Of a stretch of DNA of 64,000 nt, positions 4,086 to 47,573 are shown piece after piece. This DNA is from Trypanosoma brucei (taxonomy: Eukaryota): NCBI GenBank assembly GCA_000002445.1, contig CH464491.1:2336001-2400000 (forward strand), written 5' to 3'. A program made the position numbers and the translations under genes. A model generated the notes under the pieces. It ran no database searches. It was not told the origin of the DNA and was given only the letters and a program-made list of their open reading frames with translations. Each line of letters starts with the position of its first letter. The stretch's first letter is position 1.

Positions 4086-5801
4086 ATGTGTGGGGGAGAA
4101 GAGAATGGTGGATTGGATCAGGCACATGTGTCCTACAGTGGCAGTGCGAGTGAGCAAAACATTGCGGAAATGATTGTAGACCCATCAGGTTCCCGTCAGC
4201 CCACAGCATTCCAACTCACACTCGATTGCAATAAGGCAGGAATGGGAAATGTGGATAAGGAACGTGTGGAAGCTATTATACGTGATGCCAGGGAAGGCAC
4301 ACCTTTTTTATTAAATGAACAACGTTTGGCTGAGGGTCGAGAGAAGCAACTGCAAGAGCTGAAGCGGAAATCATCTCTCTTCACTCGGTTGTTGGGTGGT
4401 GAACGAAACGCTGCGCAGCGGAAACAGTGGGAGCTGAAGGTTTCCAAAATAGAACAGGAGCTTGAGGCTACGCGTCGACTGGGAACTTATATCCATTTAG
4501 ACATGGACATGTTTTATGCTGCTGTTGAAATCAAGAAGCATCCGGAGTACGCCACCATTCCGCTTGCCATAGGCACCATGACTATGATAATAACAACAAA
4601 TTATGTTGCGCGTGGACGTGGTATTCGTCAAGGTATGCCAGGTTTCCTTGCTCTAAAAATCTGCCCAAATCTACTATTACTCCCTCCCGATGATGATTCC
4701 TACTATTTGGAATCCAATATCGTACGTCGTATTGTTGCTGAATACGACCCTAATTATATAGTTGTTGGTTTGGATGACTTTACTCTCGAAGTAAGTGCCT
4801 ACATAGAGCGTTTTGAGGGAACCAAAACAGCCGAAGATGTGGCTTCTGAACTGCGTGTGCGTGTATTTGGTGAAACAAAGTTGACAGCAAGTGCTGGTAT
4901 TGGACCCACTGCAGCACTTGCCAAGATTGCCAGTAATATTAATAAGCCGAATGGACAACATGATCTTAATCTTCACACGCGAGGGGATGTGATGACATAC
5001 GTCAGGGATTTGGGTCTACGTTCTGTGCCTGGTGTTGGGAAGGTTACGGAAGCTCTGTTGAAGGGACTGGGTATCACCACTCTCTCAGATATTTACAATA
5101 GGCGTGTTGAACTTTGTTACATTTTGCACAATAATTTATTTCGCTTTTTGCTTGGAGCTTCCATTGGCATTATGCAATGGCCCGATGCAGCAACGGCAGC
5201 CAATACCGAGAATTGTGAGGGGGCTACTGGAGAGCAACGGAAGGCAATCAGTAGCGAGCGATCCATCACTACTCCACGAACCAAAGAAGGTATGCAGGAA
5301 ATGGTTGATACCGTATTCAATGGTGCCTATGAAGAAATGCGGAAGAGTGAGATAATGTGTAGACGGATATCCCTCACAATTAGATGGGCCTCTTATCGTT
5401 ATCAACAATACACAAAAAGTTTGATACAATATTCAGATGACTCTGCAACCCTTCGCCGCGCAGTAGACGAGCTCATGTTACCGCACGCTGCAAAGTATTC
5501 AGAGATGTGTTTGTTGGGGGTACGTCTCTCGGACCTTATCTCTGCAAAAGACTTTCATATGAAAAGAAAGGGTGGTAACCAACTGTCTATTTCACAATTT
5601 ATTCGCCCCAAGAAGCCGGGTGAGGTAACAGCAACCACCGGTATAAAAAGGGAGAGGACTACTGAACCGAAACAGGTTGTGGAAATAATAATATCATCAG
5701 ATGACGAGGATGAGAATGATAGTGTTGGCTTGGCATCTAGCTCCACTATACTCGTTTCAACTGGCAAAGGTACTGTTGAGAGGGAAGTTACCATAATTTA
5801 G
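4086..5801 (+). CDS. POLK: DNA polymerase kappa, array copy 2
   Basis: Same motifs as copy 1; first ATG at 4086. It differs from copy 1 in discrete blocks (DPSGSRQPTAFQLTL, MTMIITTNYVARGRGIRQGMP, and a little-finger segment SITTPRTKEGMQEMVDTVFNGAYEEMRKSEIMCRRISLTIRWASYRY). Confidence 0.9.
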   Translation: MCGGEENGGLDQAHVSYSGSASEQNIAEMIVDPSGSRQPTAFQLTLDCNKAGMGNVDKERVEAIIRDAREGTPFLLNEQRLAEGREKQLQELKRKSSLFTRLLGGERNAAQRKQWELKVSKIEQELEATRRLGTYIHLDMDMFYAAVEIKKHPEYATIPLAIGTMTMIITTNYVARGRGIRQGMPGFLALKICPNLLLLPPDDDSYYLESNIVRRIVAEYDPNYIVVGLDDFTLEVSAYIERFEGTKTAEDVASELRVRVFGETKLTASAGIGPTAALAKIASNINKPNGQHDLNLHTRGDVMTYVRDLGLRSVPGVGKVTEALLKGLGITTLSDIYNRRVELCYILHNNLFRFLLGASIGIMQWPDAATAANTENCEGATGEQRKAISSERSITTPRTKEGMQEMVDTVFNGAYEEMRKSEIMCRRISLTIRWASYRYQQYTKSLIQYSDDSATLRRAVDELMLPHAAKYSEMCLLGVRLSDLISAKDFHMKRKGGNQLSISQFIRPKKPGEVTATTGIKRERTTEPKQVVEIIISSDDEDENDSVGLASSSTILVSTGKGTVEREVTII

Positions 5802-12394: not shown

Positions 12395-12915
12395 TGGGAG
12401 TTATTTGAGTGCCAGAAGATTGATCACCCGGTGGGCAGTTTTTTGTGTGTGCCTTCTCTGTGAATTACTGTGGTGCAGTTGTAAAATATTTCCACCGATG
12501 TCTCTCTTCTCACGGGCGCAATATTGAGAAACTCGGTCGGATCTTTTTTTTCCTCCCTCTTACGGGACCACAATAAAAACTGAAACCAATGAAATGGGTT
12601 GCTTCAAACCCCTGCTGTTAGTTGAATTGTTGTTCGTGCTTTATGACAACTTTTCCCCCTGTGGTGTACTGCACCGCTGATGCTACAGTTTCGCCGTCAC
12701 CCGCCGTTTGTCTTTTGACTGCCGGCTGTAGGCGGCCGTGTTGCAGTTGGCGAATAGCGCTTAAGGTAAGTTTTTCACAAACCCCCATCGCCCAGTGTTT
12801 TTCTTACAACCTGCTATCATTTGCCCTTTGTCTTCGCTTATGTGTTGCGATGCGCTTACGCACGCAAGTAGTGGGAATAGGACAGCTTAGAACATCTTTT
12901 ACTTCACGAATTTGT

Positions 12916-14496
12916 ATGGGTCGTAGGAGCAACTCTGTCTTCTTCCATCTTTGGCTGAGCTTTGCTTCCCTTTGCCTGGGAAACAGCGACAGTTCAGAGG
13001 GGTCACCCCCAGTTTCTAATGGGACATCGCCTGTAGTTTTGAGTGATCAGTCGGTAGCTAATATGGAAGCAAACGACTCTCAATGGAAGCCTATTCGCAT
13101 CGTGGTATCGGCGAAGGACCTTGATGACTCACTGAAGTATTGCGTGGTGGCCGGCGTCCCCCGGCCCGACTTTATGGGCGGGACTTTGCGCTGCAAAACT
13201 GGCGATGTATTGACGAATGAAAAACGACTAATACTTACAGAGCACGCCCTTCCCAGTGCTATCCACTTACATGCCGAGAGACTTCTTGTTGGCATGGAAA
13301 TCGACAACATCGTCGTTCCAGAGTTTGATTCACCTGCGTGTAAAAGTTTCACCGTTCCCATACATCACCGTTCTGTCGGTGTGCCGCAGGCGGATATTAT
13401 TTTGTACGTGGCTTCTGGGCCTGCGCCTCACGATGGTCCCGCTTACGCAACAACATGTGCTTCGCTTCTCTCTGGGCGTCCAATCGCAGGGGCCATAAAT
13501 TTCTCTCCTAGCGCAATCACTGAGTCGTACCTGTACATTCGGACCGTCGCCCACGAAATAGCCCACGTGCTTGGCTTCAATTTCGAAGCCATGAAGCAGC
13601 TCAACATGGTGGGTACAAAAAATATCCGAGGTAAGTCCTCTGTGAAGGTTGTAAAGACACCCAATGTAGTTAAGGTGGCACGTCAATATTACGGTTGCGG
13701 CAAGATCACTGGCATGGAACTGGAAGATAATGGGGATGACAGCGTACGTAACTCGCACTGGAAACGCCGCATTGCAAGAGACGATCTAATGACTGCCATC
13801 ATGGGGGTTAGTCACTACAGTGAGCTAACATTGGCCTTTTTCCTTGATACGGGGTTTTATAGGGTAAATTGGGAGAAAGGGGAACGTATGCGATGGGGCC
13901 ATGGGGCGGGCTGCAGTTTCATAGAGGGAAAATGCATGGAAAACAATGAAACAAACTTCCCAGACATGTTCTGTAACGACTCTGCGGAAACGCTGTCCTG
14001 CACACATGACCGACAAGCACTTGGGCGCTGCACTGTGCATTCATATGCCGTACCCATAGAGGAAAGTGTGCGATACTTCACGATGTCCTGGGTAGGAGGC
14101 AGTGACAATAATCTAATGGACTATTGCCCTGTTGTAGAACCCTATACGGATAGCTACTGCCGAGATGGTCGGCGGGAGCTGTTACCCGGTAGCCGCATAG
14201 GGGAGAGTTCACGTTGCGTTAAGGGTGAAGGACTAGTTGCCTTCACTACTCATGTTGGCGACATATGTGTGGAGATTCATTGTGGAAAGAGGAGGGGAGT
14301 TAGTATACGTTACAGTGGTGATGATAGCTGGCACGTGTGCCCAGAGGGTGGGCATGTGACGCCCGATAAAACCTTTTCAGAAGGCCGCATTGTGTGCCCT
14401 AAGTGGGAAGAAGTTTGCGACGACAATGCCATGACTCTATCATGTCTAGCTGCCGTGTTCGCCATCTTCGTCAGTGCCCTTTCTTTGGTTGTATGA
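12916..14496 (+). CDS. GP63: GP63 / leishmanolysin-family zinc metalloprotease (major surface protease)
   Basis: HExxH zinc-binding motif in leishmanolysin context (VAHEIAHVLGFN). The mature region is Cys-rich. An N-terminal signal peptide follows ATG 12916 (MGRRSNSVFFHLWLSFASLCLG). The hydrophobic C-terminal tail (LSCLAAVFAIFVSALSLVV) is consistent with a GPI-anchor signal. The track ORF 12622 starts at TTG; ATG 12850 is an alternative start. Confidence 0.8.
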   Translation: MGRRSNSVFFHLWLSFASLCLGNSDSSEGSPPVSNGTSPVVLSDQSVANMEANDSQWKPIRIVVSAKDLDDSLKYCVVAGVPRPDFMGGTLRCKTGDVLTNEKRLILTEHALPSAIHLHAERLLVGMEIDNIVVPEFDSPACKSFTVPIHHRSVGVPQADIILYVASGPAPHDGPAYATTCASLLSGRPIAGAINFSPSAITESYLYIRTVAHEIAHVLGFNFEAMKQLNMVGTKNIRGKSSVKVVKTPNVVKVARQYYGCGKITGMELEDNGDDSVRNSHWKRRIARDDLMTAIMGVSHYSELTLAFFLDTGFYRVNWEKGERMRWGHGAGCSFIEGKCMENNETNFPDMFCNDSAETLSCTHDRQALGRCTVHSYAVPIEESVRYFTMSWVGGSDNNLMDYCPVVEPYTDSYCRDGRRELLPGSRIGESSRCVKGEGLVAFTTHVGDICVEIHCGKRRGVSIRYSGDDSWHVCPEGGHVTPDKTFSEGRIVCPKWEEVCDDNAMTLSCLAAVFAIFVSALSLVV

Positions 14497-35711: not shown

Positions 35712-36943
35712 ATAGGGATCTCCTCCAATCTATCGAACGGCTGCGTCCTTTTTCCAGAAGAGTTGTATCTGTTGATTTGCCCGTGGTGGAGATGGCAAGG
35801 GTGAGTTATATATGTAACTAGCATGTGGGGTTGTACTATCCAAAGCCCATGTAGGTAGTCAATAAATGTGTACAGTTGGTTGTCGAGGTGGGGGTGTTGC
35901 GTGCGTTGGTGAGGAGGGTGTGCTTTTTGTATGCATACAACGTATGCTTACCTCCCATCCACCACAACCACAACCTCCAACCAGTCAGAATGCTCGTTTT
36001 GTTCTTCGCTTTTCACCGTATTCGGTACTGTTGCTTCTACCCAAATTTGAACACTTTGCTTTAAGTATTATCTTTTTTCTTTGTTTGCTCCGCCACGACA
36101 AGTCAACGACTGTGCCGCGACGGCGCCTTAGTGGCGGCCCCTCCGTCGTTGCCCTTTTGCTCTGTAGAAGATATGTCGCTTTCTGCTTATTTGCTGAAAA
36201 GCAAATACGGGCGCCATTCAGCTGATCCGGCGTCACGTACTGTGTGGACGGTCACTGCTAGGTTTCCAGTCTGTTTATTTCCCTCCTTTTTTTGAGCTTA
36301 GTTGGGCACTAGTTTTCTTCCCTATGCCTGAAAATAAAAATCGTGGCGTGCCTTCGCTGGGCCACCGCGGTTTGTGGCGAGACGGGGAGAAGCCCGCGCC
36401 AAACGCAACGGGTTTCAGGAGTACATATGTCGGGGCCCACTTTAATTGTAGGTTTACGCGCCCCGCTACTAAAACATGGTGGTTAGGAAATTTTAGTAAG
36501 ATGATATACCGCTGCGGGCACCAACTTACCCGCCATTGCGGTGTCAAGGTCCAGCGCCGCCCATATCGGTGGACAACAAAACGCCAGCACCTTCGACATG
36601 TCGAGCTGGTTTCGGAGGTGCATTTACAATCACCCGACGGTGCCCCAATGAGGTGCGATGGTCACTTGAGGGGAAGGAAGAAGCGTTAGTTCGCAATTCG
36701 GCATAGCGGGGCAAACCGTATGTTTAGCCTAGTGTGCAGCGAAAAGAAAGGCGTGCGCGAATTTACAATAAACTGCTTCTCGCCGGATTTGCCTTCCGGT
36801 GCACTGCCAAGGTGCTGATCCAGAGGCGACAGGATGCAAGAGCAAAAAAAGGGGAAGGATCATACAAACATACGTAGATGCACACACGTACGCTTATGCA
36901 TTTGTTGTTTGTGAATGTGGCACCGAAGAGGGAACGAATCCCA

Positions 36944-37065
36944 GGGGGGGGGGAGGTTTTGATCGAGTTCTGTGGGGGTGAACTGCGTTAGTAAAGAGTG
37001 TGGGAAAAAACTCCCCCGCGGCAGATGCTTCCACCGCCTCCGGGACAGCCGGGACCCCCCCCCCC
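36944..37065. repeat. Homopolymer pair: G10 (36944-36953) and C11 (37055-37065) about 100 bp apart
   Basis: ccaggggggggggagg ... gggaccccccccccctt. Plus C13 at 15442-15454 and A12 at 32524-32535 elsewhere in intergenic DNA. Confidence 0.85.
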
Positions 37066-37780
37066 TTCCTTTGACAGCGAGCTAGTGATCCGCAAAAGCG
37101 AACAACAACACCCCGCTAGGATATTCGGGATCTGGCGGGGATTGAACCCCCAGGCCGCTTCGTCTCACGGGACCGTGCCGCCGGTAGTGTCTTTAGGGGC
37201 GCCAACGGGCGGAAGCGAATGTGGATGATTCGGCTGCGGTTCTACCCTTCGCATTCGTGCCATCATGCGCAATAGTATCTACGCCACCGACGCTGCAAGA
37301 ACGCGGAGGTGTTACGAGCGGTTTGTGTATGTTGCAGAGGGGGAGAAGGAGAAAGGAAAGTATCCTTTTTTGTTTCCACTGCGGTCGCACGTGTAAGGGA
37401 TTTCGTGAGGCCAAACAGCATTCACTTCAACCTCTCACACTATCACCTTCTTTCCCTCTTTAGCTTCCATATTTTGGAGAGCTGTACAACACCTCTGCAG
37501 CGATTTTTGACACATCCTGCAAAAATCTATTTCTACCACAAACTTCGTCCGGATTGAAAAAACACCAAGAGCACTCGCCTCGAGGGCGATCCCTCATGTG
37601 GCTATAGTTTTCTCCTGGGACTTTCACTTCCAATCTTAACTCATGTTGTCGTCTGCTTTGGTGTAGCTTTCGCACCTCCAAGCTTCGCGTGCACACACAC
37701 CATGGTAGATTCACCGAGCGCAGACTCCGCGGCCATAGCAACTCAACGGTACACGGAACTTCTCTGAACCGCTTATAGCC

Positions 37781-37820
37781 TATATATATACATATATATA
37801 TATATACATTTTTTTTGCAT
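37781..37820. repeat. TA-rich simple repeat ((TATA)/(TATATACA) runs followed by T8)
   Basis: tatatatatacatatatatatatatacatttttttt, inside the long gene-free region. Confidence 0.9.
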
Positions 37821-39384
37821 TAAAGTTCCCAATAGTTCCCCAAACGACCTTCCAACGCCCGCCCAGCCACTCACTCGATCACGCGTGTGTAAATTTTGAC
37901 CCTCGATTCGGTTTCCTCTCATGCCCCCTTTTGGTTGTCGCAATTCACGTATTTTCGTCACGCCGCAATCCATATATACAAACTGTCCCTTGTGGCCCGT
38001 GATCCCCATTCCGCAAATACCGAGAGTGGCTCATGGCTTTCCAACGTTACACGCTCCCCTTTTCCGCAAAAGCATGAGGACCCGTAGACGACACCACCTC
38101 GTAAAGCGACTGCAGCCTGCCGCCGGGCTCGGGTACCCTCGTCCCGGTTGCGCGGGGTTTGGTTGTTTTCGCTTTCAAACCTTCCTGGAGCAAGGGCAAA
38201 TGGGGAGCTTGGTTCAGCCTCTTTTTCGCAGCGTCGACTGTCAGCCGCGGCCCTTTCAACGCCGATTTAGCTATTGCGTGTTTTCCACCGCCTCGACCGT
38301 ATGGCCTGTTCACGCTGGCTCTCCACACCATGGCAGCTCTGTTCCCACTTCTAACTCGATCTTAACTAATACAAAACCGCTACTTTCCTCAACGACAATC
38401 GCTAATGGAGTGCTGGGGTCTCGTGCGCCAAAGCTTATCGGGGAAGGAGGCTAACCCCCACCCGTGATCACGACGCGCAGCCACCTACGCCGCCAAAAGT
38501 CGCAACGCTGTCAAATGCCTTCGCTTGGCCCTCGAAAATGAGGAATTGTGGATTGAAGTTACTGCTGCCGCAGATGCTTGGGGCGGCCGAAGCCGCCATC
38601 GGCGTTGCGCGCGGTCGCCGTTTGCACGATAGCATATGCATACGATGTACATGAACTGCAACCCGCTTCGGATGTTTTACACCCGCGGCGGCGTCGCGAA
38701 ATGGCAACGCCTAAGTATGGGGTCCCCCTGGACACTTGTGTGATCCGCCGCACCCCTTACCGAAACTGGTAAGAGGAAGGGAAGCTAGCTATTGCGAATG
38801 GGCCGCAGCGGCAGCGAGCAGCCGACCTCAGAACCAAAGGAAGTGCGCTTTAGACGGATAATCGGTGCTGTTTCTTACCGAAAGGGTGAACGGATGCGCG
38901 GTGGAGGAAGGGGGAAACTGCCAAAGAGGGCTTGTGCCACCGCAAAAACGAGTGCGTACGCGACGGGAATGGTAGACAGAGATTACGAAAGCGGGGGCAT
39001 GCCCGGCGATTGTCAAATGAGAGCGAAACACCGAGTAGCGGTGAACGGGGGCCCGTCAGCACTGACTTGTTTGCAGCCGTGACCGGTTGCCAAAATTGAG
39101 CGTTACGCAGAACATTTTTTTTTTGGAATTTTCTTCGTGCCTTCGTGGGAGTTTCCCCCAACTGGCGCGGCCATCAGCCATCACCGTAGAGCCCTGAGAT
39201 GCTATCGGTCTGGCGACTGTGGCAGAGTCTCCCTTTTTTATTCAGCCTAACACACCCTCTATAATTTTTGTTGTAGCTCCGCAGTTGAACGGAATACAGC
39301 AGATGGGGCGAGAAGCCCCCACCCCAGACTCTCCAAAAGATGTCAATTAGCAATCCTTTTGTTTTGATTTTTGTTATTCGTTTA

Positions 39385-41565
39385 TTATTCTCTCATCCTT
39401 TTTCTGTTTCTGTTGCTTGTTGACTGCATACCCCCTCTGTCTCTGAGGGTGTCTGGACTATTCCTGCGTCCGGTGCTTTTCCTGCTAGCTCCACACCCGG
39501 CAATAAGGGGGGAAGTTGCAGAAGGGAGAGTGGGTTGTATGACTGTTACCTTAGGTGAGGACTTCACCTGCGGCCGGCTCCGTTCAACCGCAATGAGAAA
39601 TTGCGCCAGCCTTTTGGAGAAGCATATATCCTGCACACACTCACCTTCTACCGCAAACCTGACACGTAACTCCTCCAAACCGGGACAGCTCATCAAGTGC
39701 AACGACGTTTCTTCGCAGTCGCCGCGTTGGCTGGTAACAGCGCGCTCTACCTTCATACCGTGCATCTTCTTTTGATGTAGGGTGAGGCCAGTTTTGCTAG
39801 CACACTGCCTTCCGCATGTCGGGCACACCAACATGGATGTGTTTGTATGCGGGGAATCAGTGGCACACAATTTTGTGCTTTTGCTGCATTTAAGCTCGAC
39901 TCCCTCACCTTTGTGGAAAGCCTTACAGTGTCGGATGAGGGAGTCCCTGCAACTGAGCACTTTTTGGCACACACCACACTGCACCTCACCTTTCCCCGGG
40001 ACGTCAACGTTTCCCTCACGGGCACGCTTACGAGGGAATTGCACCACCACCACGGTACCGTCCTCCGTCACTATGCTTTTATGTTTGAATTTCTTGTGTA
40101 GTGACAGGGAAGAACGTGTACCGAAGCTCGCCTCGCGCAGGTCACATTGAAACGGCAGCTTCCGTGTATCCTTAGGGGCTGGCACTGCTGGGGCTCTACC
40201 ATCTCCTTGCAATGAGTCTTCGTTCTCTCGCCCCCTTTTCACGCGGCAACTACCGCTGCCTATGCCATGTATTGTTCTAAGGTGGTGTAATAGTCGGCCT
40301 GGCACTGCGAATTTGGAGGCACAGATGGTACAATGAAGAACCTGTGGTCTCATTGGGACTCGTGTGCTCGATGGTAAAGGAACGATCGCCACCACTGGAG
40401 GGGGCTCCGGGGGGATGTCCACTGCAGGTGTTGCATCGCCGTATTTGATCCTCCGGAGGGCATCAGCTCGCACAAAGCCGTGTTTGTTTACCATGTGCGT
40501 TACAGCACTCGAGCGGCATTGGTATGTGGCATCACATTCCGTACATTTGGTCGGTTCGAAGGTTCTCTGAAGAGTGCGTGTCGCAACAGGTGTGGTTGTT
40601 TGTGTTTGTATTGTTGGCCCTATTGCTGCATGTTGCGGGTTGCACCATCGGAACTGTGGAGGCACACTCGGGTTGATTTTTCGCAACATCCATCCATAGT
40701 ATCTTGAAGACCCAACACGAAAGCGTGCCAGTGCCGTTTCTTCTTTCCTCGTCAGTTCTTCTTTATGTTTTGTTGGAAAGTGGTTGCCCGTGATACCAAA
40801 CCTATGAGTGTTCTCATGGACTTCTTCCGANNNNNNNNNNNNNNNNNNNNNNNNNNNNNNNNNNNNNNNNNNNNNNNNNNNNNNNNNNNNNNNNNNNNNN
40901 NNNNNNNNNNNNNNNNNNNNNNNNNNNNNNAACATGATTGGGCCAAGGACAGTTCCTTGTGGCACTCCTCGCTCAAATGTTCTGCTTCTGGAGAGCTTCT
41001 CCTTGAATCTCACTCTGCCAGTTCGGTTACTCAGAAATGATACGCACCACTTCACAATGTGGGGTGATACCTTCATTCTGTGCATTTCCCTCGCAATTTT
41101 GTCGTGGTCTACTGTATCAAATGCCTTCTCGTAGTCAACGAATACAGCACCCGTACGATATTGGTGCGTGGGACGGCAGAGGGCAGCGCGGACGTGCAGG
41201 AGTTGTTCGAGCGTTGAGCATCCGGGGCGAAAGCCTGATTGCTGCGGCGTCAGCTGGGACTCAACAGTGTCTCTAAGTCTCGCGGCAATTATGCGCTCCA
41301 TGACTTTGCAGAGACAGCTCGTGAGCGTCACAGGCCTGTAAGAATCGAGGTCCTCCGCCTTTTTTCCGGCCTTCAGGATGGGGATGATAACACCAGTCTT
41401 CCATGCAGGCGGCACGACTCCCGTTCGTAGGCTCTCATTGAATAGCCTCAGCACAACATTCAGCGCTGTTCTGCCGAGATGTTGCAGTGCCTCGTTGTAT
41501 AAGCAATCAGGTCCGGCTGCGGATCCACTCGGTAGCAGTTTGATCGATCTCCGTAGTTCAGCCAT
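39385..41565 (-). pseudogene. Retroelement ORF, C-terminal part: reverse transcriptase, RNase H-like region and C2H2 zinc fingers; interrupted by a 100-N gap
   Basis: RT motifs: AAGPDCLYNE, GVIIPILKAGKK, and a YxDD-region lost in the gap. C-terminal C2H2 fingers: CTECDATYQCRSSAVTHMVNKHG, CTICASKFAVPGRLLHHLRTIHG, CGVCQKVLSCRDSLIRHCKAFH, CPTCGRQCASKTGLTLHQKKMHG. The ORF translation contains the X run that comes from the N gap. Confidence 0.8.
40831..40930. other. Assembly gap (100 N) inside the retroelement RT region
   Basis: Exactly 100 N, a conventional placeholder size. The element as shown is ~3.9 kb, whereas full-length ingi/L1Tc is ~5 kb, so roughly 1 kb of RT sequence is probably missing here. 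Confidence 0.9.
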
Positions 41566-41643
41566 CGTGATGGGACTGAACTCACTCGCTATCGTCTTTA
41601 TGGGTGCCGGTGGGTGTGAGTCGGGGTGCCTTCTTGCGCGGGA

Positions 41644-42828
41644 CTAGTACAGTTTAATGAACCTCTCAGCTTGACGGTAGTCCGTGATGGCCGCGTTATC
41701 AACAAGTACAGCCTGTGTGGTTAGTGGTCGTGGCGCATATACCTTCTTGACAATGTGCCAACTGCAGCGGTCTGACACCGCAAGTCTGGAGCATAGCGTG
41801 CTCCATCTCTTCTTTGTGGTATGGTCCAGGATCTGCTTACGCGTGGCTACCAACTTTTCCCTTCGGTGGGAGGGTCCGCATCCAGCGATCTCTTCATCGA
41901 GTTTCGCGAGCTCAGGTGTCCAATGTGGTGGCGTTGCTCTGCAGCCACGGGGGACGGAGACCTTCGTCGCAATGCGGATGGCGGAGCTCAATTTCTGTTC
42001 CATGGTGTTGACGTTCTTCTCTCTAACAATTTTCCTGCAGAGCTCGTCAACCTTGAGACGGAAATTCCTCCAGTCAGCTTTTAGCCATGCGTACATGGGC
42101 TTTCGAAGCCGCGGGCAACTCAGTGCATCTGTGCCGTCTCCAACGATAACGTCGAAAAATATGTGATGGTGATCGCTATCGGGAGAATACAGCGATGTCC
42201 ACGTGTACACTGTGCAATTCCTTGACAGTGTCACATCAGGGGTGGACTCCCCGTGGTGGCGCGCGTACCTGGTGCACTCACCAGTGTTGCAGACCAGAAA
42301 CTGGTTGTCAATGCACCACTGTGTGAGGGTTTCACCCTTGGTATTTGGTGGGCTCGCGCGATCCCATGCCAACGCGTGTGCGTTAGCGTCTGCACCGATG
42401 AGCTGGGCACCGTCAGTCATCAGAAGCGTATCTAGGTCAGTTGCCGTGAAGGTGTGTTTTGGTGGGATGTATGCCGACGTGACAGTCAGCGCTGTTCCAC
42501 GTGCAAGGTGAATTGTTGCATGCACTTGTTCAATGCGACCAACAACGGTCATACCGGTCTCGACTGGCAGGTCCTCCCTCACTAGTATTGATACACCACC
42601 TCCTTTGCAGTTACGAGCTATTCCGTGATGTTGGTAGCCAGCAACGCTAAAGCAAGCCGCCTCTCCAGGCGTCATCCTTGTCTCGCTCAACAGACAAAAG
42701 GCGATCCGCTCATCAACAAGGGTTTTGTGGAGTGCTAATCTCTTTCCTTGAGATAGCCCGGCGCAGTTCCACTGCATCCCGCGCAACGACGGGCCGGGAT
42801 TCTCTTCCACATCACCGGACAGCAGCAT
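41644..42828 (-). pseudogene. Retroelement ORF, N-terminal part: 2A self-cleaving peptide (DVEENPGP) followed by an apurinic/apyrimidinic-type endonuclease domain; ends at an in-frame TAG
   Basis: MLLSGDVEENPGP matches the D(V/I)ExNPGP 2A consensus. The following sequence MQWNCAGLSQGKR...LLSETRM is typical of the N-terminus of LINE endonucleases. The stop TAG at 41646-41644 is in the same reading frame as the downstream RT ORF (42828-41565 = 1263 = 3 x 421). Confidence 0.8.
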
Positions 42829-44321
42829 CTTAGTGCGGGTGATACTGCTGATGGCACGCTAGCCACGTGCCCAGGGACCGACAAATGAAAAACGGTGTCA
42901 CAGCAAGACGCTGCTGATCCCTGTGCTGTATGATGCCGTAGCCGGAGCACAGCAGTGTTCCCCATGAAAGGAACGCTGCTGGCTCTTGGCTTCCCCCGAT
43001 GATACGGGGTACTGGACCCTGACACCACGTTGATGTGGCCGGCATCGCCAGGGTTCAAAACATTTTTTCCCAACCTAATGAAGGCTAGTCTTTTCGCTAG
43101 GCTCCTGCGTTGATTTGCCTTACTTTCACGGACTCTCTGTTCCGGCACCCATTGTTGTGGCAGCATGTCGCCCCTATTAGGGATTGTATTTGATGTCAAC
43201 GGGCGAACAACAGATGTAATGCCCTCGTTGGAGTCTTCAAGTGCCGTCCACTCCACCTTTCCCCTATTTACGGGGCTTAATTGCGCGTTCCTTTCAGTAA
43301 TTTGGGCCAACCAGCCCCCTTTTCTGAGGAAGTAAAAGGTTGTGGAGTTTTGAAGTACATTATCCTTTTCATATCGCGCCCCACTGCTACATTGGAGGTG
43401 ATCCAACTGTGGTAGCTGTTACGGTTCCGCACCACATTCTGAACGATCACCTCACAACGCCAGAAATAGGTAACGTTTGTGTGAAACAGCCTGTCTCCCA
43501 GTGTTGTGTGTCACATTAGGTCTTCACTGCCGGTGACCATTAAACTCTTCTCCAGTTGCCAAATTTAATATCAGCTTCTCTCACTCTCTTCCTTTGGGGC
43601 GCGCGAGTTCCGGCAGCAGGGCGACAATTCGAATCCGCTCAAAATAGCCGTGGACCTTTATTTCTCCCAGTAACTCCGACCTTCCCGTGCTCACGTTAGA
43701 GTTGTCGGGGAAAGGGAAATATGTCACAGCATGCTGTTCACTACTTTCAGGCACCATTGCAACAGTGACGCTTCCCAAATCTGTGTTTGTTCTCAGACTC
43801 GTAGCTACACCACTCCAAAACGAACGTGTGTTGACGCCCTGGTGCTTTTCTCTCTAAAATGGGCAAGCCCCGTGTGTTTGCAACCATAGGAGGTGAATGG
43901 CGCGGTTCCCATAATCTTTGCGATCACCTCCTGCGTGACGGAAAGGTCCAGCGCGCCCTCGCAGAGCATTGCCGGGAGGGTCACACGTTTCCGCCTGAGA
44001 GGTGTCCCTCCGTTTCGTTAAGCTCCGATGATGGGAGCGGGAACTGGGTTCTGCTTGGTATCCCCGCTGAGGGACAAGATAACCCCGTCAACAGAGCATA
44101 AAAGTGTGCACTTTCGCCGGCATTAGGCAGTGCTTAAAGTGGGCACCTTCCCGTGGTGCTCGACTGTTGCCGCACCTAGTTGCTCTGGTTGGCTGATGTC
44201 AGGTGCCACCGCTGTGCCAATGCTCGAAGGGGGGCCTTGTTCCTTACCTTGGAGGCCGACAGCCCCTGATACCACGATGGGACGACCGGTGTTCCCACGG
44301 TTGGTGTTGATGTTCTGCGTA

Positions 44322-44565
44322 CCCTAGCAATGCCGGCCACATCAACGTGGTGTCAGAGTCCGGTACCCCGTATCATCGGGGGAAGCCAAGAGCCAGCAGC
44401 GTTCCTTTCATGGGGAACACTGCTGTGCTCCGGCTACGGCATCAAAAAGCACAGGGATCAGCAGCGTCTTGCTGTGACACCGTTTTTCATTTGTCGGTCC
44501 CTGGGCACGTGGCAGCGTGCCATCAGCAGTATCACCCGCACTAAGATGCTGCTGTCCGGTGATGA
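44322..44565 (+). mobile_element. Truncated RIME/ingi 5'-end fragment (~245 bp) in the opposite orientation to the ingi copy (head-to-head)
   Basis: It begins with the same retroposon signature in + orientation (ccctagcaatgccggccacatcaacgtggtgtcagagtccggtaccccgtatcatcgggggaagccaagagccagcagcg). It is colinear with the ingi 5' UTR through the ATG (MLLSGD). Homology stops after ~245 bp. The next ~250 bp do not match this ingi's 3' end, so it is not a canonical complete RIME. Confidence 0.7.
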
Positions 44566-46526
44566 TGTTTCGAATGATGTATTTTTAGGGTGTCGAGGGG
44601 GAATGCTGCCAAATCATCCGTCACTGAAGGGCGAAACTGGATTTGACCGAGGGTGAGTCCACCGCCTGCTCGTCATCTATCATTGCTCAGGCAAGAAGTG
44701 AGTGCACGGTGACGAAAAAATGATAGACACAAGTTGTTTGTAGATACGTATACGTAGCATTCTACAAAGAATCCAACAATTCCACCAACGAATGTTGCCA
44801 TCACTGAATACTGTCCGTTTAAGCCCATTTTCAACGCGGTTACAATAAAGAGTCCCTCGGAGAGGCTTTTGTTGTACTAGAGAAAGGGGGGAGAACGAAA
44901 TTTAATTCGTGTAGTTGCAGCAGTGGCGGAGGTTGGTAAGGGTTTCTCGTCTCGATTTTGAACCGCTGCTGCCGTAAGTAGGGATTTCCTGACTAGCGGC
45001 AATCAGGATAGTCATTCCGGTCTTCTGGTGGAAAAACTTTATTAAGGATTATGGCGCTTTTTGCTCTTCAGGGTGCCGTCTGCTCTAAGAGCCACAAGGA
45101 AGAGGGAGAAAACGCGTGGCGGAGGAAGAGGCACGGGGTTTACGAGGCTTTGGGGAGACTTCGACCCCTAGTGAGCGGCAACGCGGTACACCCTTGGCCC
45201 TCCCCGTCCTACGTCCATCACCCACAGTGACCCGGCTCCTAGGGCGTGTCACCGCTGCCTGATAGCTCGAGTAGTGGCTGCTAAACGCTTGCGGTGCCGG
45301 GAAGTGCGGTCTTTGATGTGACGCCTGCCGGAGGCAGGGCTTTTTACACAGCTTGCCTAACGAAGGTCGTGATTTGGTGGTCGCTGTAAATCGTCGATTG
45401 ACGTGGTCGTTTTGTGGCAATTCAGTCTGCCGGGGGCGGTTGGTGCTACCGCCGCAGATGTAGGAGGTGCCCTACCTGGTGCTCTCGGTAGTGCCTTCGC
45501 TTCTCCTCAGTCGTTTTTTTTTGGACTGTGGTCCGACGGAGGAGAGATATGGGGCTCGTATGTGCCAAACCAAGGGTGGGGATTGGATCCAAACCGACTG
45601 CCAGCGCTTCACTCACGGGGAGTTGGTTGGGCTCTCCGGGGTGGTCCCGCACCACCCACATGGGAAATGAGACGAGGGAGATATGACAGCAACTTGCTCA
45701 CCTGGCGTTCACGGCGCGGTGCCCGCTGCGATCTACGTTCTTTTATTTTTTGTTGGGGAGGAGTTCAGTGTCTCGTTCCTTTCCTCAGCTGCTATGGCAA
45801 AAATTGTGGTTCGTGTGTGGAGTACCAAGGGTGCCGCAAACAACAAGCAACTGCGCTCCCGTAGCAACTGTCCGTGATTTTTGTCTTCCATCAGGGGATG
45901 TTGTGGAGTTCTCTAATACCGCGTTGTTCTGGCACAGCTTACCCGCTTGTCTTTGGCTATGTCCGGCACCACCGAGTTTCTGCTGCTTCCACTCATATCT
46001 AATACTAGTTTTGTATATTTGTTATAGAGAGGGGGGGGGCGCCGTGATGTTAAGGCATGGCATCTGCCCTCGGTTTTACGGGCCTTCATCCAAAATTTGC
46101 GCCGTTATTTCATCTGCTTTCTGAGCTAACCCGACCTAAGTGTCATTTCTATGTCTTATGAAGGTGGGTAAGCCGCGTATACACTAAACTTCTGTGGTCT
46201 GTGGAGCGCCACGTTCGTGGCGTTATATGATAAAGGCGTGGTTAAAGAATCTAAAGTTGTCAGTGCATCCCGTTGTTGGTCTGTTCTGTGCAAGTCGTGG
46301 TGAATACGATTAATTTCTGTCTGTGAAGGGTTCATTATATTTGTGCCGCTTTGATGGTTACTTTATCCTTTATGGTATTTGCATTCTGATGATAAACCCT
46401 ATTTTGTTGTTGGGAGGAATCATTAGCTTTGTGTAACGCTAAATCTGTTAGCATATAAACGATTTTTCGTTGTCTGCGGCAGATAAGGCCTCACACAAAG
46501 AAAGTGTGCAAGGTTAGTGAAATTCA

Positions 46527-47573
46527 ATGGCCTTTTCTGCACTAGCCGCTGTTTTTTTCACCGGTTTCTGTGTTCTGTTCGCCACTATATTAGCTTTTTC
46601 TCCGCGACAGACCCATGATAGGAAGAAGGTGCTGGCGCGGTTGAGAGCTAAATTCCCCTACTCTGTCAGTAAGATCGCTCACAGAGGGGGGAGTATATTG
46701 GGACCGGAAAATACTTTGTATGCTTTCCACAGGGCAGTGAAGGAGGGCGCGGCGGACATGCTGGAGTTAGATGTTCGCGAAACCATGGACTATCGTATTG
46801 TGGTTTGCCATGACGAGTGGCTGGAAAGACTTTGTGGGAGTGCGTACAAGCACGTGACTGTAAAAGACATCACGGTTGGCGACGATCCCAACACCAATCT
46901 CCCCCAACTGCAAAGGAATATACCTCTCCATTTTGTGTCTAGTGAGAAAACCATGTACTGTGCCACAGATTCCGTACCAGTGGACGGCACCACTCGCTTG
47001 TGCTTGCTGGAAGAAGTATTCGAAGCATTTCCTACTATCCCAATTCACATTGATATTAAATATGCGAGTTCAGATTTCACTGATCGGATATTCGATTTGA
47101 TTAAGAAATATGGACGCGAACCGGTTACATTCGTTGGCAGTAGCAACTGGAGGAATGAAATATATATTACAAGGCATATGAAAAGACTTTCTTCACAGAA
47201 GGACAAGTGTAAATTTCACACCTTCGCCGGTCCCATAGACTACGTGCTTGTGCACGTTGCTCACTATATTGGCGTGCTGCCGCTGATCCCCTTGAACTTT
47301 GATATTTTTTCTGTTCCCTTATTTACGAAACGAAAGAAACAAGAAATTCCATTTTTCTTGCGGCCGATAGCACAGCTTTTAAATTCCCCGTCCCTGTGGA
47401 TGCACTTGCAGCAGCGGGGTATTCTTGTTGTCGGTTGGGTGCTAAACGACGTCGATGAGTTCGAGGAGGCTTCTAGATGGCCAATAAATGGTGTAATGAC
47501 CGATGATCCAATATCATTCAACGGTTTCCTAATATCACACGACGTTTCTAATACGATGAATTTGCTGAACTGA
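46527..47573 (+). CDS. Glycerophosphodiester phosphodiesterase (GDPD/GP-PDE family)
   Basis: N-terminal transmembrane/signal segment. The GDPD signature is HRGGSILGPENTLYAFHRAVKEGAADMLELDVRETMDYRIVVCHDEWLERL, with the two catalytic His (HRG, CHD) and metal-binding E/D. Later IHIDIK and VVGWVLND (compare W.VN) are typical of the family's C-terminal TIM-barrel strands. Confidence 0.8.
   Translation: MAFSALAAVFFTGFCVLFATILAFSPRQTHDRKKVLARLRAKFPYSVSKIAHRGGSILGPENTLYAFHRAVKEGAADMLELDVRETMDYRIVVCHDEWLERLCGSAYKHVTVKDITVGDDPNTNLPQLQRNIPLHFVSSEKTMYCATDSVPVDGTTRLCLLEEVFEAFPTIPIHIDIKYASSDFTDRIFDLIKKYGREPVTFVGSSNWRNEIYITRHMKRLSSQKDKCKFHTFAGPIDYVLVHVAHYIGVLPLIPLNFDIFSVPLFTKRKKQEIPFFLRPIAQLLNSPSLWMHLQQRGILVVGWVLNDVDEFEEASRWPINGVMTDDPISFNGFLISHDVSNTMNLLN

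Follow-up and report, generated by a model that had tools for sequence, protein, structure and literature searches.

This locus raises the question of whether a retroposon lacking long terminal repeats (a non-LTR retroposon), standing antisense within a gene cluster of Trypanosoma brucei, should be seen as a recently inactivated or stop-codon-readthrough-dependent element, or simply as one more broken copy of a known family. The element runs on the minus strand, from 43053 to 39115, amid a cluster of plus-strand genes, as seen upon sequence inspection of the window, by which we mean the whole stretch of 64,000 nt analyzed (contig CH464491.1, positions 2,336,001 to 2,400,000). An original prediction, made from the letters alone, had described it as an ingi/L1Tc-type element with an N-terminal 2A peptide and a reading frame interrupted by one TAG and an assembly gap. 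We found it to be an ordinary, already catalogued broken ingi copy in the T. brucei reference genome and, with high confidence, a defective Tbingi copy of the ingi4 subclade of the ingi/L1Tc clade, located on chromosome 11 of strain TREU927. The ingi family has been known since 1987 and its 2A sequence since 2006.

The family assignment was carried by comparisons with other copies. The Tbingi copy (39115..43053, minus strand) displays 3,839 visible nt together with a 100-N placeholder, with an inferred full length of about 5,259 nt, and its nucleotide identity to three complete ingi copies of 5,247–5,255 nt, i.e. a paralog (L001) and the copies of T. b. gambiense DAL972 (L002) and T. equiperdum IVM-t1 (L003), was 96.2–96.8%. 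The paralog, complete at 5,255 nt, aligned with both visible halves at about 96%. When a majority consensus was derived from four aligned copies (window copy, DAL972 ortholog, IVM-t1 ortholog and paralog), the visible element was 98.75% identical to this consensus, which includes the window copy itself. The segment of reverse transcriptase (RT) was 96% identical to the ingi RT of T. b. equiperdum, and 42–49% identical to the ingi proteins of T. congolense, T. vivax and T. grayi. An AP-endonuclease (APE), an N-terminal RT part and zinc fingers follow each other in one frame, with the positions of the catalytic half of RT and of RNase H falling in the gap, and the 3′ untranslated part (39115..39384, minus strand) ends in a tail of ten A. 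The predicted membership in the ingi/L1Tc clade, with a 2A motif, was thus borne out by the family matches and by the encoded GDVEENPGP; the predicted poly(A) 3′ end could be located as the A10 at 39124-39115, and the proposed antisense placement agreed with the finding that the window's other open reading frames (ORFs) with a length of 250 aa or more, 22 in number, are all on the plus strand.

The consensus, at 5,252 nt, contains a single ORF from position 9, with its ATG inside the 79-nt 5′ signature, to position 4979. This ORF encodes 1,657 aa, exactly the size published for the potentially functional ingi protein, which is likewise encoded by one continuous ORF (PMC3447711). Pfam domains of the consensus protein were APE at aa 90–295, RT at 563–804, RNase H at 1019–1156 and zf-C2H2 at 1403–1426, while the 2A sequence covers aa 66–85, with NPGP at aa 82–85 and the Met of MLLSGD as residue 73. 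In the window copy, a 394-aa ORF starting at the ATG at 42828 ends at a TAG at 41646-41644, and a second ORF (41565 to 39385) begins 1263 nt, or 421 codons, downstream of the first in the same frame, with no further stop between them upon translation of the whole element; the common frame and the offset given in the original prediction were thereby upheld. The first of these ORFs holds the AP-endonuclease domain (42160..42777, minus strand), matched by PF03372 at aa 18–220 (E-value 8.2e-07) and by PF14529, Exo_endo_phos_2, at aa 115–223 (8.8e-13). The second holds the N-terminal RT domain (40931..41358, minus strand), cut by the gap after matching RVT_1 profile positions 5–129 of 205 (1.5e-28), and a C-terminal region (39385..40830, minus strand) with C2H2 zinc fingers (zf-C2H2_4) and a TAATAA end at 39387-39382.

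What then of the TAG? That the element might be a functional or near-functional ingi, with its single TAG bypassed by programmed stop-codon readthrough, would be compatible with the visible APE and RT parts being in one frame and parted by the TAG alone, as well as with the close identity of the visible part to the consensus. However, at 41646-41644, canonical codon 467, both orthologs (DAL972 and IVM-t1) as well as the paralog have TCG, encoding Ser, and readthrough is therefore not supported. The consensus ORF is moreover uninterrupted, as is the published functional ingi ORF, the leader is split from the 2A sequence as assembled (see below), and neither conservation of the stop nor a downstream readthrough context was found. 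We hence regard such dependence upon readthrough, as suggested in the original prediction, as exceedingly improbable, and the copy alignment indicates that the TAG (41644..41646, minus strand) is a private C-to-A nonsense change, TCG to TAG, rather than a recoding signal. The coding capacity of the window copy is broken by this change and by an extra T in the leader; of the earlier statement that one TAG and a gap break the frame, the part concerning the TAG stood, with no other stop between the two ORFs, but the extra T at 42861 must be added as a second lesion. The window copy also has a private 6-nt in-frame insertion at about 40590-40610 (minus strand) within an ACAAAC-type repeat, where the protein reads IQTQTTTPVA versus IQTAPPVA in P0005.

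The 100-N assembly gap (40831..40930) stands for about 1,420 nt, its counterpart measuring 1,420 nt in the paralog, 1,421 nt in the DAL972 copy and 1,419 nt in that of IVM-t1, and it conceals the rest of RT including FADD together with all of RNase H; the hidden sequence had previously been put at only about 1 kb. In-frame continuity across a placeholder run of N is uninformative alone, but 1,420 and 100 are both 1 modulo 3, so that the two visible halves would share a frame provided that the hidden part brings no net shift.

The 5′ end of the element, at 43053, reads CCCTGGCGATGCC on the minus strand and carries the predicted 79-nt trypanosomatid retroposon signature, Pr77 (42975..43053, minus strand), within which lie the ORF-start ATG (43045-43043) and, at +25..+28, the downstream promoter element CGTG (PMC2323293; PMC4748587). 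Between 74 and 77 of its 79 positions agree with four other T. brucei-group ingi 5′ ends, and 12 of 15 positions of the L1Tc Pr77 primer were matched when compared by eye. From the signature ATG, a truncated leader ORF of 71 aa, starting MPATSTWCQGPVPRIIGG, extends over 42830..43045 (minus strand), which in intact copies continues in frame into the 2A sequence. The same leader is in frame with 2A in the T. grayi Tbingi protein P0006 and also within the window, in an ORF (44330..44656) of a solo ingi/RIME 5′ fragment of 243 bp (44322..44564, plus strand) that is inverted versus the full element and 97.1% identical to its positions 1–244. In the full element, an extra T at 42861 (gtggcTagcg) gives, according to the copy alignment, a TAG at 42859..42861 (minus strand) and shifts the frame by +1 on the way from leader to 2A. 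This T is not present in the DAL972 ortholog, the IVM-t1 ortholog, the paralog or the solo fragment of the window; in DAL972, it is instead the solo fragment that carries it.

The 2A-like coding tract, SSITRTKMLLSGDVEENPG/P, is found at 42790..42849 (minus strand), with GDVEENPGP encoded at 42816-42790 in agreement with the 2A C-terminal motif D(V/I)ExNPGP. The ATG at 42828 opens MLLSGDVEENPGP, which had been taken as the beginning of the ORF and thus as an N-terminal 2A. The consensus ORF begins at element position 9, however, having NPGP at aa 82–85 of 1,657, and the 2A appears N-terminal because the extra T at 42861 cuts the leader off. As assembled, only 12 residues from the first ATG precede the final Pro of 2A, where about 18 or more in-frame upstream residues are required; with a flipped unit described below restored to its other orientation, the copy would have them. 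The 2A sequences of ingi and L1Tc have been reported to lie 40–80 aa from the N-terminus and to be active only with a suitable upstream tract, with the ingi 2A being active in recoding assays (PMC3708506).

We next consider the age of the insertion. T. b. gambiense DAL972 (L002/L010) and T. equiperdum IVM-t1 (L003) both have it at this very position, and the element ends were also found in contigs of T. equiperdum OVI (L004, L009). Insertion at the same site in sister lineages implies that it predates the split of the T. brucei subspecies, and the insertion is thus, as judged from these assemblies, old and earlier than the separation of the T. b. gambiense and T. equiperdum lineages. The notion of a recently inactivated element fits poorly with an insertion common to DAL972 and two T. 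equiperdum assemblies, and the absence from sister strains that the original prediction had contemplated is not what was found, the element being present there. The DAL972 ortholog has four frameshifting insertions, of which the +2 at consensus position 4722 is common to IVM-t1. Between consensus positions 2001 and 3692, the IVM-t1 ingi furthermore displays six frameshifting deletions (five of 1 nt and one of 2 nt), none of which is seen in DAL972. These look like long-read indel errors, not real lesions, and the coding state of the IVM-t1 copy is therefore not readable from that assembly.

Analysis of the target site revealed that the surroundings of the element differ in arrangement between the assemblies. 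The 3′ copy of a 12-bp target-site duplication, ATGTTCTGCGTA, is located at 39104..39115 (minus strand), with its first A common to the tail, and its partner, identical at 12/12 positions, is a displaced 5′ copy at 44310..44321 (plus strand), directly preceded by GTTGG-TGTTG (44300-44309). In both DAL972 and IVM-t1, the 12-mer directly flanks both element ends, matching at 11/12. A duplication length of 12 bp, which typifies the clade, and an ingi4 signature, AxxxxxxxTxxxGTxGGxTxxx^xTxTxxTxxxxx, have been published (PMC3820030), and the register found here consisted of a GTTGG core, five nucleotides and the nick, with T at duplication positions 2, 4 and 7. The flanks at 39114 and 43054, between which a duplication had initially been looked for, were rejected as a pair, their only common bases being those of the target consensus ATGTT.TG, with the 12/12 partner at 44310-44321; no duplication is thus present at 43054, the true pair being 39104-39115 and 44310-44321.

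The displacement is explained by the orientation of the sequence between the full element and the solo fragment. A host spacer of 1,268 bp (43054..44321) has the opposite orientation in DAL972 and IVM-t1, both of them contiguous assemblies; its alignments to L002, L003 and L010 are in reverse only. Positions 5 and 8 and the +1 T at 190, by which the two arms can be told apart, move together with the spacer; the whole unit at 42810-44564 is therefore flipped, and any crossover is limited to the final 53 nt of each arm. This unit of 1.76 kb comprises the first 190–243 nt of the element, the spacer and the inverted 243-bp solo fragment, and as a result of its flip the 5′ duplication copy sits 1.27 kb away, beside the solo fragment. 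In a contig of T. equiperdum OVI (CZPT02001628.1, L009:4690-4800), the sequence departs from the spacer at 44244/44245 of the window and goes on into minus-strand genes unrelated to it; the transition falls on a short common motif, GGAACAAGGCCCC, and 47 N stand in place of the solo fragment. The contig is probably joined chimerically here, considering the location at a short shared motif.

The interior of the element provided a second peculiarity. Identity of the window copy was 96.4–96.7% with the two orthologs and 96.5% with the paralog, the orthologs being 98.7% identical to each other, and adjacent non-coding flanks were 98.4–99.3% identical between TREU927 and the other strains. We found 63 sites common to both orthologs but absent from the window copy, in clusters, as well as 41 private sites of the window copy, the A of the TAG among them. 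These patterns suggest a mosaic interior, which could have arisen either from chimeric assembly or from ectopic gene conversion in either of the lineages. The ingi interior was 2–3 times more diverged from the orthologs than the adjacent non-coding DNA, and clustered differences were seen at e.g. positions 1344–1620 and 2192–2742 of the element with N removed. That the window copy might be a collapsed consensus of many copies was ruled out by its 41 private substitutions.

Whether the flip and the mosaic are biological or technical must be weighed with care. One possibility is that they, perhaps along with the TAG and the +1 T, arose falsely when a high-copy repeat was assembled for the reference, and that the true locus is arranged as in DAL972. 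The unclosed gap in the same element speaks for this, as does the fact that all arm-distinguishing sites flip with the spacer, as for a block bounded by inverted repeats and placed backwards, and the interior is equidistant from the orthologs and the paralog, with its differences clustered; such repeat regions were also described as hard to resolve in the DAL972 paper (PMC2854126). However, the junction intervals, each consisting of the duplication, a 243-nt arm and unique flank, are shorter than 300 nt, the junctions have no N, and the private substitutions of the window copy are not those of a collapsed consensus. The 2005 TREU927 genome project reportedly used capillary reads, of which a single one would span such an interval. 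It is because of these short intervals and the capillary origin of the assemblies that we find a real recombination between the inverted 5′ ends more likely than an assembly error, and we view the purely technical explanation as a possibility to be kept in mind though not the preferred one.

The explanation that we on the whole prefer, if only with modest confidence, is that both the flip and the mosaic are real, such that the inverted 243-bp ends recombined in the TREU927 lineage and ectopic conversion overwrote patches of the interior. DAL972 (capillary) and IVM-t1 (long-read), being contiguous and independent assemblies, both show the other orientation, in which the element is flanked by the duplication; the displaced side in TREU927 has kept a perfect 12/12 duplication; the differences from the orthologs are grouped in tracts, and ingi and RIME have been reported to recombine and cause rearrangements (PMC2854126). 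On the other hand, the crossover must fall within the last 53 nt of the 243-nt arm, which would occur in about one case in five if crossovers were uniform, and exact-protein look-ups of two junction-spanning ORFs matched nothing. Such look-ups of the 394-aa APE ORF and the GDPD protein likewise yielded no record with contigs. The more detailed course of events, in which the 243-bp ends recombined in the TREU927 lineage, the spacer was flipped, the broken solo leader was thereby passed on to the full element and interior patches were converted, we hold to be evenly balanced between true and false.

Some further points weigh against our overall interpretation of the element and its history. The ingi4 target signature was matched at only 7 of its 10 specified positions. 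With the interior being no closer to the orthologs than to the paralog, parts of it including the TAG might not descend from the original insertion or might be misplaced reads, and the count of lesions in the window copy covers the sequence outside the hidden 1.42 kb only. Finally, an Rfam scan of 38500-45500 gave no hepatitis delta virus (HDV)-like ribozyme or other RNA family at E ≤ 1 and hence no such ribozyme in the signature, though an L1Tc-type ribozyme may have no Rfam model; active ribozymes have been reported for T. brucei long interspersed nuclear elements (LINEs) of the ingi clade (PMC4035085).

As to the origin of the solo fragment, it stands head-to-head with the full element and terminates within the 2A codons. 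Its target motif (43054..43074, minus strand) is composed of GTTGG, GAAAA and the 11-nt AATGTTTTGAA, the latter recurring at 9/11 positions as GATGTTTCGAA at 44564-44574. We found no similarity to an ingi 3′ end after the fragment at 44322-44564, and no A-tail. Lacking a 3′ half and an A-tail, and being directly followed by the flank repeat, the solo fragment is therefore not a RIME. Target-primed reverse transcription would not be expected to give an insertion truncated at its 3′ side; one speculative explanation would be that priming took place internally, on GAUG at element positions 240–243. Twin priming as the source of this inverted 5′ fragment was ruled out, as 1.27 kb of host DNA lies between the two copies, each having its own GTTGG motif.

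How an intact copy would function can be outlined from the architecture of the consensus and from the published family. An intact ingi would be transcribed from or through Pr77, with translation predicted to begin at the signature ATG at position 9, whereupon ribosome skipping at NPG/P would free an 84-aa leader-2A peptide. The downstream APE-RT-RNase H-zinc finger protein would then mobilize both ingi and RIME, with insertion by target-primed reverse transcription at GTxGG-type sites yielding the 12-bp duplication. The window copy, presumably unable to make this protein, would be a passenger. As it stands antisense in the polycistron, read-through transcription would copy it as antisense RNA and could feed the pool of ingi double-stranded RNA and small interfering RNA (siRNA), and the inverted arms, of 243 nt each, might fold upon each other in the precursor RNA. 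The siRNAs of the ingi family were found to make up 52% of Argonaute-bound small RNAs, deriving from both strands, and ingi loci to be enriched in H3.V (PMC3447711, PMC4721609).

With regards to the wider locus, the plus-strand genes flanking the orthologous site encode a syntaxin/SNARE, a CHAP-domain protein, GDPD, UPF0220, CEP76 and a DEAD helicase, and further Sua5, an RNA polymerase subunit, DPCD, GRIM-19 and D123. The GDPD protein of the window (46527-47570) is exactly EAN79837.1/XP_828949.1 of TREU927, while its DAL972 and T. equiperdum versions differ, and the neighbors of GDPD carry the accessions EAN79835 and EAN79839. A tRNA scan of the whole window for a transcription boundary found none. 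Only 38 retroposons have been counted inside directional gene clusters in TREU927 (PMC2323293), and the position is therefore uncommon, though already catalogued. The distance between the flanking host genes is 10.8 kb (35712-46526), or about 6.6 kb after removal of ingi and the solo fragment, with a GC content of 50–53%; the mean intergenic size of T. brucei has been published as 721 bp. The interval at 35712-46526 looks like a local landing zone for retroposons inside the gene cluster. At 36539-36590 (plus strand), a degenerate copy of positions 27–77 of the 79-nt signature was seen (score 46, versus a mean of 18.4 and a maximum of 33 for shuffled sequences), with an A-rich stretch following near 36840, and this degenerate signature, which is separated by 2.5 kb from the 3′ end of ingi, may be a relic of SIDER/DIRE type. 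A tandem double signature, as in TbSIDER2, was considered for 36430-36600 and rejected, the second half alone being significant. At the start of the window, a run of N (1-77) is followed by a tandem array of three ORFs of 574–575 aa with Y-family DNA polymerase (IMS) domains, and thereafter by an IMS-like ORF of divergent sequence, an ORF of 513 aa without a Pfam match and, at 12622-14496, a leishmanolysin gene of the GP63 type.

The element itself has little biological weight, as ingi, its 2A, the 12-bp duplication, the target preference and the siRNAs are all published and the TREU927 retroposons are already catalogued; the value of the analysis is mainly curatorial, with the flip and the mosaic interior being minor curation points. 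The canonical ORF start together with TCG in the other copies show the TAG to be readable as a simple nonsense mutation, and the gap conceals 1.42 kb. Between the reference on one side and T. b. gambiense and T. equiperdum on the other there is a small inversion, with ingi ends in inverted orientation at its borders, which matters for dating, small-RNA mapping or transcription studies that use the locus. Should the recombination and conversion scenario be true, the locus would be a small, datable example of dispersed ingi copies exchanging sequence and reshuffling their flanks, and target-site duplications would be an unreliable guide to the histories of individual ingi copies.

Compared with Tbingi in general, the window copy has in common the 5′ signature of 79 nt, an ATG at position 9, the leader-2A, the A-tail, the 12-bp target-site duplication and the GTxGG target core, shows in its visible part APE, RT and C2H2 in the places they have in the APE-RT-RNase H-C2H2 order, would have a length of about 5.25 kb, and is 96–99% identical in nucleotide sequence to other copies. 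It differs in being broken, through the +1 T in the leader and TCG to TAG at codon 467, in having the 6-nt in-frame insertion, in its unassembled central 1.42 kb, and in the displacement of its 5′ duplication copy by the 1.76-kb flip in the window assembly. Tbingi shares with L1Tc of T. cruzi and with Tcoingi, L1Tco and Tvingi a single-ORF architecture, Pr77 at the 5′ end with a CGTG downstream promoter element, a target-site duplication of 12 bp and a 2A that begins or lies 40–80 aa into the protein, whereas these elements have other published target signatures (PMC3820030) and those of T. congolense and T. vivax have a protein identity to the window copy of only 42–44%. TbRIME, a non-autonomous element of 0.5 kb made from the two ends of ingi, resembles the solo fragment in roughly its 5′ half, and the solo fragment has the GTTGG target motif at nearly the right register; it differs from TbRIME by having neither 3′ half nor A-tail, and by the 9/11 repeat of its upstream flank that directly follows. 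With picornavirus-type 2A, such as that of foot-and-mouth disease virus, the ingi 2A shares D(V/I)ExNPG/P, the required upstream tract and ribosome skipping, but in the window copy that tract and the start codon are in different frames, and what the ingi 2A parts is a retroposon's enzymatic polyprotein from its short leader peptide.

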